Position numbers: made by a program. From an uncultured bacterium (GTDB lineage: Bacteria; Zixibacteria; MSB-5A5; UBA10806), in assembly GCA_965541585.1 (NCBI GenBank), contig CBEUCH010000016.1:22056-86055 (forward strand): a stretch of DNA of 64,000 nt, written 5' to 3'. Numbering within the stretch: position 1 is the stretch's first letter; every line of letters begins with the position of its first letter. Positions 18,001-39,000 of the stretch are shown here, piece by piece.

Positions 18001-21000
18001 AGGGAACCGATTATTGAACCTAAAACGCGGTCGGATCTGAAAATCCGGCTGTCGACTCGCGGCCACCTGTAGGGGCGAAGACAATTCGCCCCTCTTTTTT
18101 TTAGCATACTTGCGAAATATATTGACTATGTGGCGCGGGGTATCTATATTATAATTTGGTTTATTAACATCTCTGCTGCGGTGGTATCAGCGGTCTATAG
18201 GAGGCGAATATGAGAGCCTTAAGAGTTATAATAACTGCACTAACGCTGCTCATGTCGGCGTTGGCGTGGGGCCAGGATGTAGAATATCTGGAATCGACCT
18301 TATGGGCTGGAATCACCGACGTCAAAGTCGTAGATAATTATGCTTACTGCAGCTTTAGAAATGGATTGAAGATAATAGATATCACGGATAGGACGCATCC
18401 GGTCTTGACCAGCAAACTATTTTTCTTAGGAGAAGGACAGACGATCGATATCAAGGGTGATCAGCTCTTCATGGCTGATGGTAGCGGTGGTTTACAAATA
18501 ATAGATATCTCAAATCCTGAGTTTCCTGCACTCATGAGCAATCTTGGTACACCTGATACCTTATATGACGCATTTATCGAAGGAAATTATGCATACCTTG
18601 CTGTAGATGATTCTGGATTATATATCGCTGACATATCCGATCCCCTTAATCCGATTCTCGTGGGGAGTGAAGACTCTCCAATAGATGCCCGGGGTGTTTT
18701 TGTTTCAGGAGACCACGCCTATGTAGCCGATCTTTTTCGCGGCATGAAAATATACAGAATCACAGATCCAGCCAATCCAATATTGGAGGCCGCTTTTGAT
18801 TATCAGTGCTACGTTAAGAATCTAACTGTATCAGGTCATCACGCTTATCTTGCCGCCGGGGCCAGCCTGTTAATAGTTGACATCACGACTCCCCTGGAAC
18901 CTGTTCTTGTATCATCCTTTTCTACTTTACCCAATCATTGCGAAGGGGTTTATGTCAGGGGGAATTATGCCTACCTTGCCGTCAGCAGTTTATTCCAGGT
19001 AATCGACATTTCTGATCCCACCAGCCCGTTCGAGGTAGGCTCATATGAAATGTGGGGACCGGCAATGGACGTTTTCGTCCAGGACGATCAAGCATACGTG
19101 GTTGATCGTGATTATGGTCTTTTGACATTAAATATTGAAGATCCATTCAATCCTATTCAGATCGGATATTACATCACAAAAGGAAAGCCGATTTGCGTTT
19201 TCACTGTTAATGATTACGCCTATGTGGCCGCTGACCGATTCGGTTTGCATATTATAGACATTGCTGATCCGGCTAACCCCTCTTTGCGCGGGTCGCTCCA
19301 AACAGGCCGGTGGTATCATGATATTTTTGTTCTTAATAGCTATTCTTATATTTCCGTGGGAGAATTGTTACAAATAGTGGATGTCTCGGATACTGAAAAT
19401 CCATTTCTTGCAGGGGAATACGAGATAGAAAATTATTTTTATATATCGAGTGTTTTTGTGGCCGGTCAATATGCCTACCTGGCCGTAGATGAGTTTGGAT
19501 TGGAGATTGTCGATATAAGTCACCCGGAATACCCTGATCTCATAGGAAGTTATAATACATGGAGTTTCCCCTACTCCATTTTTGTCAGCGGGAATTATGC
19601 ATACATGGTTGGTGAGTTCGGCCTTGAGATATTCGATGTCTCAGATCCATCTGACCCGTTGTTAGTGGGGAGTAGCAATCTCGGATGGGCAAGTGCTGTC
19701 TTTGTTAGCGGCTCCTATGCCTATATAGGAGGCTCCAATCAGCTGGTAATATTGGATGTCATTGATCCTTTCAACCCTACACTCGTTAGTGCTTGTGATG
19801 CTCGAGGTTTCGTCCTGGACGTTTTCGTGGAAGGCCACTATGCTTATTTGGCAGTTTACGGATTTGGTGTTCAAATCATAGATATCTCAGATCCAGCCGA
19901 TCCTTCTTTGATCGCAAATCATGGTACTCCGGGTAATGCGCCCAAAGCGCATGTTGTTGACAATCATATATACGTGGCCGACGTTTTCTCCATGATTATT
20001 TTGCGTTTCGACCCTCAAACAGGAATTACGGAGGAAGTTTCAGCCGCTTCCAGATCTTTCTCCCTTTCCCAAAACTACCCCAACCCCTTCAATGCCAAGA
20101 CCACAATCAAATATAGCCTGCCGGAAGCGAGGGAGGTTACAATCGAAATTTTCGACATCCTGGGACGGAAGGTTGAGACGCTGGTTCAAGAAAAACAGGC
20201 TGCCGGCTATCATCAGGTGGTCTGGGATGCTGAGAATCAGCCGTCAGGAGTCTATTTCTATTGGATAAAAGCCGGAGAATATAAGGAATCGAGGAGCTGT
20301 TTGCTTCTGAAATAGAAGCTCAAGGGAGAAAATATGAAGAAGTTATCACTGGCAACATTAATCGTGATTTTCGTCGTAGCTATAGCCTCCGCCCAATCAA
20401 ACAAAATCGTCTTCGGGCCGCTGGTGGGGGATGATGCCGGAGTTCTAACCGTACACAAAAGCCAGGCCATCGGAGTTGAACTCTGGGTACGGACGAACCC
20501 GGATAATCCGGCTGACATTGTCGGAATGTCTCACGGCCTGATTTCCGAGGATTTTATCATTGCCGAGCGAAACGGCATGGATCCCGAGCCTGATTACGAT
20601 TCACCCCCCTGGGAAAATGTCTTTGTGGACGGGCCGTATGTATATGATCCGGAGGATAACTTTCCTATTCCGGTGGGTTGGACTTGCGAAATGCAGGGCG
20701 CTTTGTGTATTATTTTTAATCCGGTGCAGTGTGCTATTTTAGATACGCAAGGAGAGTGGGATCTCTACGGCACCTGGCTGATGACCACCAACACCGAAAT
20801 ACCGACAGAGCAAACTTATTTCCCATTCCAGGAGGGCTGGTACCCCCATACCCAGGGCCGGGAAAGCACCATTTGGGCATTCGACATTGGTGGTGGTGTC
20901 ACTCCGGAGCAGTCTTACTGCGGGTTGTATTTTGAATCTAACATCTGCTCCTATCTCTCAGGCGACTGCGACCATAACGGCTTTCCAATCGAACTCACTG

Positions 21001-36000: not shown

Positions 36001-39000
36001 GAACGGATTTTTCGAAAAGAGGACTTGTAAATCTGGTGTCTTAATCGGTGATTCTCAGGATCTGGCGTCAGCCTTTTCCTGGTATGTGAAAATCAACCGA
36101 TTAATGGATAAGGAGCCACCCATTTGCCTGCTCAAAAAAAAGGCAAATAAGCTCCACAATTTTTGCAAAAAAGTCTTGACATGGTTGGAAAATGCAATAT
36201 ATTGTTGACATCAAGGATGAGTCGGTTTTGGCCTCTCTGTTATGGTCATTTGCTGTTGAGGTAAGATCGGGCGATTTAAGGGGTTGGCAAGCAAGAGTGT
36301 TAATAAATAAACAGTTTTACCTGATCAAAAGGAGTAAAACATGAGGAAATTGTTGTTGTTGGGTTTGGCCATTGTTTTCGCATTCAGCTTGGCATCGGCC
36401 GAATCAAACAGGCTGGTCTATGGACCATTGGTTGGCGACGACGCGGGTGATATCTTAGTCGAGTTTGCCGGCGATCCCGTTGAGGTCGAAATGTGGGTCC
36501 GCACCGATCCGGAAAATCCGGCCGCATTCGTGGGAGTGAACCATTCACTGATGACCGAGGATGCAGTTGTTGCCACGCGCAATGGCGTAACTATCGATCC
36601 CGCTTACGCGCCGCCGATGTGGGAGACAATCTGGCTCGACGGCCCATACATCCACGATGATGCTGATGATTTTCCTATACCGGTGGGCCACACCAGCGAG
36701 TCGGCGGTTGCCTTATACTTTGTATTCGGCGAACCTGAAGGTGATCCTCTGGATACGCAGGGAGATTGGGATTTATACGGATCCTATAGCGTGGTCACCA
36801 ATGAAGAGGCTCTTGAAGGCGAATACCATCCGTTCTCGACGGGCTGGTATCCCCACAGCGGGCAGGGCACCAGTTGGTCATATGAAACGCCTCCGGGCGG
36901 AAGCGCTGATCCCGAACAGGATTACGCTACATTGAATATCGGCCTGCTGGCCGCTGACGATGACGACATCCTGCCCATTGAATTCTCTCTGGCCCAGAAC
37001 TACCCCAATCCATTCAACGCCTCCACCACCATCGAATTCAGCCTGCCGCAGGCCAGCGAAGTTACGATCCATATTTATGATATCCTGGGTCGTAGCATCG
37101 AAACGCTGAATACAGGCACGCAGACTGCCGGTAATCATTCCGTTGTCTGGCATGCCGATAACCAGCCATCGGGCGTCTATTTCTACAGAATCCAGGCCGG
37201 GAATTTCAGCGATCAGAAGAGCTGCCTTCTTCTGAAATAACAGAAAGTCAATACGGCTCGAATATGGGCGGTCCTTTTGGGCCGCCTTTTTATTTGTGCA
37301 ATGGCATCATCTATATCCAGCCGCAAAAGAAAATACAAGCATCGACCATTACTATCTTTAATGTTTAAAATCCTGCCTTCTGCGATGACAGCATCATTTT
37401 CCAGTAAATAGAAACTTTTCCATATAGACAGCAGTATCCTAAATGTGGTTCAATTAAGCACGATTGGCTTGGTTGTATTCCTGCAATTCGTAAGGAGATT
37501 CAGATGAAAAAATTCGGGCTTTCGGTTACGATGACCTTGATCTTAACGGGGCTTTTGCTTATCGGCAAGGCAGCTTCCTCCTACGGGGAGGTTAAGAAAA
37601 TCCCCCAGAGATCGGAGATCGACGATAGATACAAATGGAAACTGGAGCACATATATCCCGATACTCTGGCCTGGCTGGCCGATTATGAGTGGCTTAAATC
37701 CCGGATGGGCGAGCTTGAGAGCTTCAAGGGGAAACTAGGTGAATCGGCAGATATTCTTTACAGCTGTCTGCAAATCCAGGATAGCCTGAATATCGTACTG
37801 GGCAAGCTTTACGTCTATGCCTACATGAAACAGGATGAGGATACCCGTATCCCGGAATACCAGCAGATCGGCGGCAAGGTTGCTTCCATCAATTCCCAGT
37901 TCGGAGCCATGGAATCGTTTATCAATCCCGAAATACTGGAGATACCGGATGATAAGCTGAAGGGTTTTCTGGAGTCCCACGATGGTCTAAAGACATATAA
38001 ATTCTATCTTGAAAATCTGATTCGTTCCAAAGAGCATATCCTTTCACCGGAGGAGGAGAATATCCTGGCTCTGGCCGGAAATGCCACCGGCGGCACGAAG
38101 GATATCTTTCGAATGTTGTACTATGCCGATGTTAAATTCCCCACGGTTACAGATGAGAACGGTGATGAGATTGAATTAACGCGGGAACGATACCGTGAAA
38201 TCCTGGAATCGCCGGATCGTGAAGTAAGAAAAAACGCCAGTAAGGCCTATAACGAGGCGTATCAAAAATATTTCAACACGCTGGGCGCCGCACTGGCGAC
38301 GACCGCTAAGAATAACTGGTTTTACGCGCAGGCCAGGAATTACAACAGCTGTCTCGAACATTCCCTCGATGATGATAACATACCGACATCGGTGGTTACC
38401 GGCTTGGTAGAGGCCGTCAACGCCAACCTCGAGCCACTCCATAAGTGGATGTCGATTCGCAAGAGGGTGCTGGGTATCGATGAACTACACGGCTATGACA
38501 GGTCGGTTCCACTTGTTCCCGAGGCCAAGGAGATGATTCCCTACGACCAGGCCAACGAGATTCTGATAGAGGGCCTCAAGCCCATGGGCATATCTTATAT
38601 GTCCGATCTAAAAAAGGGACTCAAGGCCGGTTGGATAGACGTCTACGAGACCGAAGGCAAAAGAAGCGGCGGCTATCATTGGGGATCTTATGCCACTCAA
38701 CCATATATTCTGATGAATTACAATGACAATATCGATGGTTTGTTTACGCTGGCTCACGAGATGGGCCATGCCATGCACAGCTTTTACTCAAAAGGAAATC
38801 AGCCCTACAGAGATTCACACTATGCAACATTCGTGGCCGAAGTGGCTTCGACAACCAACCAGACGATCCTGATCAAAGATCTGATCAAAAACACCAAAGA
38901 CAAAAAGAAGAAAATGTATCTTCTGAATCACTTCGTCGAGGAGATTATCGGAGTATTTTACGTGCAGACGATGTTTACGGAGTTCGAGCTGGCCGTGCAT

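Follow-up and report, generated by a model that had tools for sequence, protein, structure and literature searches.

What does a bacterium do with a tandem run of secreted proteins that share one N-domain and end in either of two tails? We analysed a window of 64,000 nucleotides (contig CBEUCH010000016.1, assembly GCA_965541585.1) from an uncultured bacterium of the Zixibacteria, where such genes lie at 20334-37240. The reading we favour, with moderate confidence, is that they form a family of secreted mini-scaffoldins belonging to a non-cellulosomal plug-and-socket system for surface display in a Gram-negative host.

A tandem array with exchangeable tails

Gene calling gives 16 genes, all on the + strand, separated by 9-18 bp except for a 390-bp gap before the last one (a16). 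The genome-wide survey's note had described a 17-gene stretch; we count 16, and the gap before a16 contains no ORF longer than 91 aa. The split of the tandem paralogues announced in that note did come out of our recount, with a cysteine-bearing module (hereafter Cys-dockerin) at the end of 9 of the 16 genes (a01-a06, a09, a12, a14) and a type IX secretion system (T9SS) CTD at the end of the other 7. Pfam PF18962 matches the three array CTDs that were scanned with 33.8-42.7 bits (cut-off 27), and the remaining four CTD genes have the same tail as judged by sequence.

The first gene, a01 (20334..21242), encodes a signal peptide, an N-domain with a predicted cohesin fold (20391-20936) and a Cys-dockerin (20955-21239). 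The N-domain and Cys-dockerin recur in this order in a02 (21253..22173; 21310-21864 and 21883-22170), a03 (22160..23068; 22217-22777 and 22796-23065), a04 (23078..23983; 23135-23674 and 23693-23980), a09 (29586..30494; 29643-30185 and 30204-30491), a12 (32328..33221; 32385-32912 and 32931-33218) and a14 (34149..35048; 34206-34736 and 34758-35045). The listed ATG of a03 lies inside a02, and its real start is probably an internal Met ahead of the signal peptide. In a05 (23993..25447), two N-domains (24050-24595, 24596-25141) precede a single Cys-dockerin (25160-25444), and in a06 (25457..26413) the N-domain (25514-26065) is followed by a divergent Cys-dockerin (26081-26410) with a Lys-rich PTLKSK tail.

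Among the CTD-tailed genes, a07 (26424..28658, 744 aa) is the most composite: its N-domain (26481-27029) is followed by a weakly cohesin-like middle segment (27312-27809; hhalign 62%, E 7.5e-5), a conventional Cys-free dockerin (27843-28001; 19.5 bits in one scan, 24 bits in another) and the CTD (28419-28631). The others are a08 (28677..29567; N-domain 28734-29267, CTD 29331-29540), a10 (30504..31397; N-domain 30561-31097), a11 (31416..32309; 31473-32009), a13 (33231..34130; 33288-33830), a15 (35058..35951; 35115-35651) and a16 (36341..37240; N-domain 36398-36943, CTD 37001-37210), whose N-domain is the most divergent of the array and has no Cys. In the long gap upstream of a16 there is a promoter-like site (36176..36203, +; 11/12 consensus positions), and directly 3' of a16 a terminator-like hairpin (37266..37287, +; 9 pairs, 7 G-C, T-run), both being consensus matches only. 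On the other side, the array is flanked by an LVIVD propeller gene (18210..20315, +) that also ends in a T9SS CTD.

Tails were swapped at least twice in the array. The N-domain of a12, which carries a Cys-dockerin, groups with those of the CTD-tailed a08 and a15 (support 100/99), and the array tree has at least four changes of tail type, at least two of which are forced by well-supported branches. In a tree of 109 family members we counted 16 such changes, versus 27-41 in 200 shuffles. N-domains of anchor- and dockerin-tailed paralogues can be up to 82% identical. At the DNA level, tails are more alike than N-domains, both in dockerin-tailed genes (85% vs 68%) and in CTD-tailed ones (80.5% vs 67.6%). 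The CTD DNA of the flanking LVIVD gene is 70-92% identical to that of the array CTDs, while the gene bodies are unrelated. Exchange may occur by recombination just behind the cohesin-fold domain, whose end is conserved, among paralogues and also with unrelated genes. A sister genus has tandem genes of ~290 aa with the same N-domain, and there too the tails alternate between a CTD and a five-Cys dockerin.

The Cys-dockerin and its relatives

An HMM built from the nine array copies retrieved 45 ORFs in the genome (E<=1e-3), and the module is C-terminal in every one, which bears out the extreme C-terminal position first reported for it; between 1-5, 9-15 or 28-36 residues follow its CxxC. With a 40-copy profile (E<=1e-2) we recovered the 46 matches of the survey. 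The 46th, which belongs to a 7588-aa protein, is a conventional dockerin without Cys, and another copy is fragmentary, which leaves 44 complete Cys-dockerins. Besides the array, 33 secreted proteins of the genome end in the module. Their Pfam matches include the types already listed in the survey (LVIVD and FG-GAP propellers, beta-helices, C25 and M28 peptidases) as well as cupredoxin, and no glycoside hydrolase family. The same cargo types end in T9SS CTDs within the window.

In agreement with the survey, our scans found no Pfam or NCBIfam match to the Cys-dockerin of the host genus. Yet it is a true dockerin relative, as the survey had proposed, on the basis of profile-profile homology, fold and intermediates recognised by Pfam Dockerin_1. 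In hhalign, the 40-copy profile aligns over both repeats with eight Pfam-detected dockerins from this genome (97.7%, E 1.8e-12). The AF2 model, better than the survey's (pLDDT 83.7 vs 71.5), agrees on the fold: dockerins make up 20 of the 24 matches listed by Foldseek, with weak E-values (0.44-6.7), and in VIA, a fold search of 48,161 chains independent of Foldseek, only 16 chains reach Z>=2, ranks 1-14 being all dockerins (best 2ccl_B, Z 8.3, rmsd 1.4 Å, 60/62 residues aligned). As for the intermediates, weaker relatives in the sequence library combine loops of conventional length with the same CxC, loop-Cys and CxxC pattern. We scanned 36 of the 150 relatives listed, mostly short proteins and all from the weaker half; Dockerin_1 matches 29 at E<=0.01, with 15 reaching its cut-off.

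The library search returned 100 representatives at E<=1e-10 with our profile, fewer than the 184 previously stated. Nor is this a wholly new class of dockerin, since the five-Cys type is present in 9/9 sampled genomes of the family and 8/9 of the sister family. What is restricted to the host genus, among sampled genomes, is a strongly diverged form (E<=1e-34). The host form thus branches off, at the level of the genus, from a five-Cys dockerin type that is distributed more widely in the bacterial order. Two existing models, NF041540 (GC-type dockerin domain) and PF00404 (Dockerin_1), likewise describe dockerin variants. PF00404 picks up part of the wider family with five Cys, whereas NF041540 matches none of 16 members scanned and gives only 12 bits on the conventional dockerin of a07; neither matches the module of the host genus.

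Does the module dock? It might instead be a dockerin-derived cap that binds calcium or another metal and stabilises the protein, or a sorting tag for export or attachment outside the T9SS, the N-domain being a cohesin-shaped adhesin or structural beta-sandwich; we regard this as quite unlikely. Its extreme C-terminal position resembles that of sorting signals, and a Lys-rich PSLKxK tail is found on 15 copies and only behind this module. Both calcium loops exceed those of conventional dockerins by one residue, so that the predicted calcium binding is uncertain. Five cysteines (CxC, second-loop Cys, CxxC) are invariant in the 40 aligned copies and could make a Cys4 metal site. The survey had counted six, but the first (GDC) is present in only 24 of the 44 complete copies; judging from the alignment, the odd number would argue against a simple three-disulfide staple. 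On the other hand, Asp/Asn at positions 1, 3 and 5 and the final Asp are conserved in both loops, as are both helices, and the two repeats keep the EL-x-DV...YRG pattern; a pattern common to both repeats is also seen in dockerins with dual binding faces. The sequence has no hydrophobic or transmembrane stretch of the exosortase-signal type. Among weaker relatives the module can be N-terminal or occur twice per protein, with more than 35 residues behind it in 10 of 148 representatives, which is easier to reconcile with docking than with a C-terminal sorting signal.

The N-domain as candidate socket

The survey had left the nature of the N-domain open after a poor model (pLDDT 53.7). Folding that of a11 with an alignment of 122 sequences gave a pLDDT of 96.1 and a pTM of 0.90. 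Foldseek found 40 matches at E<=1e-3 (best 2.7e-6), and all 34 among the matches listed are cohesins. VIA ranks 1-19 are also all cohesins (Z 14.3-10.6), with 141/144 residues of 4uyp_A aligned at an rmsd of 2.4 Å. The same general sandwich occurs in pilin and adhesin domains (Z 8-10), as the non-docking explanation would have it, but cohesins score well above pilins, which appear only from Z 10.1 downward. We therefore assign the N-domain to the type-I cohesin fold with high confidence in the prediction. Sequence comparisons gave no match in Pfam, in a PDB sequence search, or in hhalign against five cohesins of the same genome (0.3%) and 30 of the order (0.6%). Hence, the cohesin call rests on one predicted model, and such a fold would not by itself prove function.

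Counting over the genome, there are 26 N-domain copies in 22 ORFs, of which 12 end in a Cys-dockerin and 10 in a CTD, with no other tail. Three of these ORFs combine 2-3 N-domains with a single dockerin, as adaptor scaffoldins do. Given the cohesin fold, the array would be a scaffold and not merely cargo: 16 putative mini-scaffoldins, with 7 anchored cohesins and 9 cohesin-dockerin adaptors.

A competing explanation, which follows the survey, is that the only sockets for Cys-dockerins are the Pfam-detectable cohesins in larger T9SS-tailed scaffoldins, the array N-domain being cargo or another binder, of Cys-free dockerins or of a non-protein ligand. There are indeed five Pfam cohesin matches in four T9SS-tailed proteins, consistent with the survey's anchored cohesin proteins: two beta-helix-Coh-Doc-Coh-CTD scaffoldins of 900 and 896 aa (contigs C1 and C4) and proteins of 310 and 715 aa (C13). 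These could be the true partners; the N-domain has no sequence similarity to them, and the Cys-free dockerins of the genome also require partners. However, about 7 conventional modules would have to serve 44 Cys-dockerins, against 26 cohesin-fold N-domains. The anchor or dockerin tail of every N-domain protein, together with the multi-domain ones, suggests scaffoldins and not enzyme cargo. Moreover, expansion of the N-domain family (10-26 copies at E<=1e-61) is, like the diverged dockerin, confined to the host genus among sampled genomes, while conventional cohesins score here about as they do elsewhere. Across the phylum, 175 of the 201 genomes sampled have cohesins. We consider this explanation improbable.

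Under the mini-scaffoldin reading, each array gene would supply a signal peptide, a cohesin-fold domain of ~180 residues and one of two interchangeable tails. The T9SS, whose PorU is present (687 bits, cut-off 420; 47 further places match the model at its CTD end only), would export the seven CTD-tailed proteins and attach them to the surface of the outer membrane, where they would serve as anchored sockets. The nine dockerin-tailed proteins would plug into cohesin sockets while presenting their own, and as adaptors could lengthen or branch the lattice; indiscriminate binding between array dockerins and array cohesins would make these nine polymerise. The other 33 Cys-dockerin proteins may be recruited onto it, resulting in the display of proteases and adhesin-like proteins. 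Dockerin-tailed proteins might cross the outer membrane by a T2SS-type route, as the genome has three secretin genes.

Comparison with known systems

The predicted folds of both partners match clostridial cellulosome type I pairs (2CCL, 1OHZ, 4UYP, 3UL4, 5NRK), with Z 8.3 and rmsd 1.4 Å for the dockerin and Z 14.3 and rmsd 2.4 Å for the cohesin. As in those systems, secreted proteins end in a dockerin built of a duplicated loop-helix unit, and architectures are scaffoldin-like (single anchored cohesins, or 1-3 cohesins with a dockerin). In contrast, the host is Gram-negative, the anchor is a T9SS CTD instead of SLH or sortase, and the cargo consists of propellers, beta-helices, peptidases and cupredoxin. 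The dockerins differ by a CxC insert of ~13 residues between repeats, a CxxC extension, a Cys in loop 2 and longer loops, and the cohesins by their length (~180 instead of ~140 aa) and by being invisible to sequence methods.

Single-cohesin anchoring proteins and adaptor scaffoldins are represented by OlpA/OlpC of C. thermocellum and ScaB/ScaC/ScaE of R. flavefaciens. Labour would be divided in the same way, with a cohesin joined to a cell anchor in one kind and one or more cohesins joined to a dockerin in the other, but here both kinds are close paralogues in one tandem array, interconverting by tail swapping. The cysteine-rich dockerins of anaerobic fungi are also small Cys-bearing docking modules on secreted enzymes (docking being putative in our case). 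They have an unrelated fold and are not known to have EF-hand-like loops, whereas the module of this genome aligns with type I dockerins of bacteria.

The nearest published parallel comes from Ca. Stygibacter (Cloacimonadota), likewise uncultured and represented by metagenome-assembled genomes, for which a cellulosome-like system has been inferred (Williams et al. 2021, PMC8542988). In that system, C-terminal dockerins occur on enzymes with signal peptides, including a gingipain-like C25 peptidase, a cohesin-bearing scaffoldin has a conserved CTD for surface attachment, and binding is inferred from domains alone. On these points, the two systems agree: metagenomic origin, dockerin-tailed secreted enzymes, CTD-anchored cohesins and binding proposed from domains. 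They differ in that the Ca. Stygibacter scaffoldin is a single protein of 3,755 aa whose tandem cohesins and CBMs are picked up by standard domain models (PMC8542988), whereas here 22 small proteins carry 1-3 hidden cohesins each and end in either an anchor or a dockerin, the dockerins being Cys-bearing.

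Array architecture and the predicted cohesin fold of its shared domain

The array occupies positions 20334-37240 of the window and consists of 16 genes on the + strand, spaced by 9-18 bp, with one 390-bp gap before the last gene. The genome-wide survey's note had claimed 17 genes, but this gap holds only ORFs of up to 91 aa. It also contains the region's best promoter-like site, and a strong terminator-like hairpin lies downstream of the last gene (both by consensus match). All 16 proteins (a01 to a16) have an N-terminus that reads as signal-peptide-like in the sequence, followed by a shared N-domain of ~180 residues whose conserved end is the motif PEQ-[SD]-Y-C-G-L-[YF]-F. 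Two types of tail follow this motif, in the nine-to-seven split reported previously: a Cys-rich module of ~85-95 residues ends a01-a06, a09, a12, and a14, and a T9SS type A sorting domain (CTD) ends a07, a08, a10, a11, a13, a15, and a16. In the three of these that were scanned (a07, a08, a16), PF18962 scored 33.8-42.7 bits (cut-off 27), and TIGR04183 gave 34-39 bits on array CTD tails (cut-off 23); a10, a11, a13, and a15 have the same tail sequence as the scanned genes. The tails are thus type A CTDs, being above cut-off, at the extreme C-terminus, and in a genome with T9SS machinery. The genome has the T9SS sortase PorU (687 bits against a cut-off of 420), and the model for it also matches at 47 other places, with its CTD end alone.

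Two array genes have additional parts. The protein a05 has two N-domains, and a07 (744 aa) continues with a cohesin-like segment that is weakly supported (62% in hhalign), a conventional Cys-free dockerin (19.5 to 24 bits), and a further segment before the CTD. We considered this last segment as a second cohesin, which was unsupported (hhalign 2.3%). As listed, a03 begins before a02 has ended (window 22160-22184); translation more likely starts at the internal Met directly ahead of the signal peptide. Upstream of the array, on the minus strand, the window carries surface-polysaccharide genes (12352-16565), including a Wzy_C O-antigen-ligase-like protein and a GNVR chain-length determinant. Downstream (42305-49543) there is a run of T9SS cargo, with a beta-helix protein, an LVIVD propeller, a 263-aa protein, and a C25 peptidase, all CTD-tailed.

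The N-domain had been reported to fold poorly (pLDDT 53.7), which is no longer the case when that of a11 is modelled with 122 sequences: the new model is all-beta, with a pLDDT of 96.1 and a pTM of 0.90. A library search gave 119 homologues, all at least 48% identical, with many contigs carrying several of them and with either tail. Foldseek returned 40 matches at E<=1e-3 (best E 2.7e-6), and all 34 listed are cohesins or cohesin-containing chains. In VIA, a separate fold search over 48,161 representative chains, cohesins occupy ranks 1-19 (Z 14.3-10.6), and Gram-positive pilin domains are listed only at Z 10.1 and lower. The superposition on 4uyp_A has an rmsd of 2.4 A over 141 of 144 residues. 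The predicted structure is therefore a nine-stranded beta jelly-roll of the cohesin type. Sequence comparisons gave no match in Pfam or in a profile search of the PDB, and hhalign reached 0.3% against five cohesins of the same genome and 0.6% against 30 cohesins of the order. The ESM Atlas provided a lead only (rank-10 cluster, cohesins 14% of members, score 0.87). Since a confident fold prediction is here accompanied by no sequence match, we label the N-domain a cohesin-fold domain and not a proven member of PF00963. Its binding to dockerins is putative.

The Cys-rich module as a dockerin

An HMM built from the nine array copies matched 45 stop-to-stop ORFs in the whole genome at E<=1e-3. The module is the last domain in each of them, in agreement with its described C-terminal position. 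The earlier count of 46 carriers recurs with a 40-copy profile at E<=1e-2, but the 46th match is a Cys-free conventional dockerin at the end of a 7588-aa protein and one other is a fragment, which leaves 44 complete copies. By the number of residues behind the terminal CxxC, the copies form three groups: 1-5, 9-15 (the array copies), and 28-36. In 15 Cys-dockerins, there is a ~30-residue extension with a conserved Lys-rich stretch, P-[ST]-L-K-x-[KR], as in the tail of a06 (window 26330-26410) and in the carriers L008, L020, L021, and L025. Spurious ORFs aside, this motif is found in the source genome behind the module and nowhere else: its 21 regular-expression matches comprise the 15 module carriers, five short spurious ORFs, and one frameshifted carrier tail. 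The latter belongs to L022 (C21:27910-29043, minus strand), where the Lys-rich tail lies in another frame just past the stop, in the overlapping ORF C21:27822-28100; the cause is either a frameshift or a fault in the assembly.

A Pfam scan of the 36 carriers outside the array (E<=1e-4) identified LVIVD (four), FG-GAP (three), beta-helix/DUF1565 (three), M28 peptidase (two), C25 peptidase, cupredoxin, and Sortilin/BNR (one each), as well as CarboxypepD_reg, SBBP, and MAM-like domains, and left 18 proteins with no family. The same types of cargo were said to occur under either tail, and this holds, since LVIVD, beta-helix, and C25 proteins in the window carry a CTD instead of the module. One carrier, L018 (C14:50039-51172, 378 aa), bears two dockerins, a conventional one of the Pfam type (24.4 bits) close to the N-terminus and the Cys-dockerin at the C-terminus, and its middle part is cohesin-like by eye. 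Three others, L032 (C6:206744-207094), L033 (C3:21135-21494), and L034 (C6:207926-208273), of 116-120 aa, consist of a leader, a dockerin, and little else; these stand-alone dockerins are of a variant with 7-8 Cys and with nothing behind the CxxC.

To the extent that computation can tell, the module is a dockerin. Two tandem segments, each with an EF-hand-like, Asp/Asn-rich loop and then a helix, are seen in 40 aligned copies, both repeats following G-D-x-[DN]-x-[ND]...E-L-x-D-V...Y-R-G. Comparison of the module profile with that of eight Pfam-detected dockerins from the same genome, seven of them at or above the Pfam cut-off, gave a probability of 97.7% in hhalign (E 1.8e-12) over both repeats. 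Inside each loop, the conventional dockerins are aligned with a gap of one residue, so each loop of the module, in this genus, is one residue longer. The AF2 model from the 40-copy alignment has a pLDDT of 83.7 and helices at 14-25 and 59-69. With this model, dockerins make up 20 of the 24 listed Foldseek matches, at weak E-values (0.44-6.7) and a TM to target of up to 0.77. VIA retained 16 of 48,161 chains at Z>=2, with dockerins at all of ranks 1-14 and 2ccl_B as best match (Z 8.3, rmsd 1.4 A, 60 of 62 residues aligned). The dockerin fold that had been predicted for the module thus comes out again in the new model.

The statement that no Pfam or NCBIfam model covers the module also stands. 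PF00404 at its curated cut-off had no match on the array proteins at E<=1 or, at E<=1e-4, on the 36 carriers outside the array, and one divergent copy gave E 0.0087, under the cut-off. Neither the narrow nor the wide form of the module matched NCBIfam, including its GC-type dockerin model, and a profile search of the PDB had no match at E<=10. Among 1.84 billion representatives, the module profile found 527 proteins at E<=1e-3, 100 at E<=1e-10, and 57 at E<=1e-30. The weaker matches combine conventional-length G-D-V-N-G-S-G loops with the CxC, the loop Cys, and C-P-D-C-P-P. Pfam Dockerin_1 matched 29 of 36 such relatives at E<=0.01, 15 of them at or above cut-off; these 36 were taken from 150 listed, are mostly short proteins, and all belong to the weaker half. 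The indirect links in sequence between the module and PF00404, through hhalign and members of the wider family, are strong. The module lies within 35 residues of the C-terminus in 138 of the 148 scored representatives listed. In the other 10, more than 35 residues follow it, and 7 of these have an N-terminal or internal copy, usually beside a second one. Calcium-dependent binding of the module to cohesins is putative.

The module had been described as having six invariant Cys, and as disulfide-stapled. The 40-copy alignment has five: a CxC between the repeats, one in the second loop, and a terminal CxxC. Of the 44 complete copies, only 24 have the first Cys (G-D-C), and the five-Cys pattern is also that of the weaker relatives in the public library. 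Hence, neither description is established. The odd number of invariant Cys would fit either two disulfides and a spare thiol or a Cys4 metal site plus one. An intermolecular disulfide between a spare Cys of the dockerin and the cohesin-fold domain was considered and dropped, because the N-domain lacks an invariant Cys: its best column reaches 82% and a16 has none. The N-domain of a13 has only two Cys, suggesting an internal pair.

Exchange of tails and distribution of the system

On a maximum-likelihood tree of the 17 N-domains of the array, the type of tail changes at least four times, and at least twice when only well-supported branches are considered. The dockerin-tailed a12 falls in a clade with the CTD-tailed a08 and a15 (support 100/99, identity 82%). 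Over 109 labelled members of the family, there are 16 changes, versus 27-41 in 200 shuffles of the labels (13 rows with no clear tail were left unlabelled and the hits P0001-P0012 omitted). Tails are more similar in DNA than the domains they follow: 85 vs 68% identity for dockerin tails and N-domains (a06 excluded), and 80.5 vs 67.6% for CTDs and N-domains (a16 excluded). Together with the changes on the trees, this likeness fits a cassette-like exchange or a gene conversion of the tails; alternatively, stronger selection on the tails may explain part of the difference in identity. The CTD of the LVIVD gene just upstream (window 18210-20315) is 70-92% identical in DNA to those of the array, with a13 the closest (up to 92%), and the gene bodies are unrelated. 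This suggests, from the sequences, a recent exchange of a CTD cassette between the LVIVD gene and the array.

In the whole genome, we found 26 N-domain copies in 22 ORFs, of which 12 end in a Cys-dockerin and 10 in a T9SS CTD. The 44-45 dockerin carriers thus divide into 12 that are themselves cohesin-fold proteins and 33 with other cargo. In three ORFs, a single dockerin is preceded by two or three N-domains, which is how adaptor scaffoldins are built. Longer scaffoldins with many N-domains were not found: among seven proteins of 556-744 aa, none has more than about three, which is weak evidence. In another assembly, P0270 (711 aa) joins Pfam beta-helix domains to an N-domain, so the latter is also fused to cargo-like bodies elsewhere.

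The genome also has other cohesin proteins. A three-gene cluster (C13:48159-74193; L039, L040, and L042) encodes a 310-aa cohesin and CTD protein, a 715-aa protein with the order Coh-cadherin-like-Coh-Doc-Coh-CTD, and the 7588-aa protein with a Cys-free dockerin at its end. Two paralogues of ~900 aa, L037 (C1:1600-4299) and L038 (C4:3305-5992), have a beta-helix, a cohesin, an internal dockerin, a cohesin, and a T9SS CTD; their Coh-Doc-Coh-CTD end apparently also occurs in a07.

We searched 201 sampled genomes of the phylum with the module profile at E<=1e-5. It was found in 9/9 genomes of its own family, 8/9 of the sister family, 2/73 of one further family, and in none of the genomes searched from the remaining 16 families. 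Matches at E<=1e-34 occur only in the three genomes of its own genus. Given this distribution, the module of the source genome is a diverged genus-level branch of an order-level type of five-Cys dockerin. What the survey's note took for a new dockerin class is only partly new, being an offshoot of this wider type. Cohesins (PF00963) are present in 175 of the 201 genomes. The N-domain is expanded in the genus, with 26, 11, and 10 matches at E<=1e-61 (fragments aside), and two genomes of the sister genus have nine more distant copies each. Strict patterns from an 8-row alignment had matches mainly in two genomes. The sister genus also has tandem genes of ~290 aa alternating between a CTD and a five-Cys dockerin, there with conventional-length loops and a match to Pfam Dockerin_1 of E 0.012-0.06 at best.

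A putative display network and its known relatives

Our best reading of these predictions is a non-cellulosomal cohesin-dockerin network for display on the outer membrane, with all binding steps inferred. Cohesin-CTD proteins would be the anchored sockets, cohesin-dockerin proteins the adaptors, and the 33 dockerin-tailed proteins the displayed load. The Cys-dockerins have two sets of candidate partners, the cohesins of the array and those, of the Pfam type, in the larger scaffoldins. The adaptors may simply polymerise unless specificities are partitioned.

For proteins that have no CTD, three secretins in the genome may provide a T2SS-type route of export. The T9SS moves folded proteins, and the dockerin could instead be an indirect ticket for type IX secretion, which we think quite improbable. 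Cohesin-CTD proteins would then capture dockerin-tailed proteins in the periplasm, where Cys might be oxidised and modules folded, and the T9SS would export and anchor the whole complex, one CTD serving many cargos. If true, this would account for the alternation of CTD and dockerin tails on one cohesin-fold body and on the same kinds of cargo, and for the arrival of CTD-less proteins at the surface. In a related bold variant of this improbable reading, the nine proteins with one cohesin and one dockerin would link up head to tail as a self-assembling polymer on the surface, with the anchored forms as caps.

Both partners are invisible to standard domain models. We count 26 cohesin-fold domains where Pfam matches five cohesins, and 44 complete dockerins where it matches nine (seven at or above cut-off). 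Hence, surveys based on Pfam badly undercount such systems in uncultured FCB-type lineages. The array is a compact natural experiment, in which close paralogues differ mainly in having an anchor or a plug, and is useful to study the evolution of specificity and topology in protein display networks. For protein engineering, it may also yield orthogonal docking pairs, which could be redox- or metal-stabilised.

The best-known examples of cohesin-dockerin assembly are the cellulosomes of Gram-positive bacteria. In this genome, the principle appears to have been recreated at the outer membrane, with T9SS anchors and with peptidases and propeller or beta-helix proteins as the load where a cellulosome has cellulases. 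Unlike in a cellulosome, the Pfam scan at E<=1e-4 found no glycoside hydrolase or CBM family on the 36 dockerin carriers outside the array, which are propellers, beta-helices, peptidases, a cupredoxin, and 18 proteins of no family. In the full-text literature, subscription journals being outside its scope, we found no description of a bacterial Cys-bearing dockerin or of a tandem cohesin array with alternating tails, and nothing on dockerins in Zixibacteria. The closest published case that we found is Ca. Stygibacter (Cloacimonadota; PMC8542988), from whose MAGs the authors inferred enzymes with dockerin tails, a C25 peptidase among them, and a cohesin scaffoldin that bears a CTD. The type of system is already known, and what the present genome adds to it is a hidden cohesin family, a 16-gene array with alternating tails, and a five-Cys branch of dockerins.
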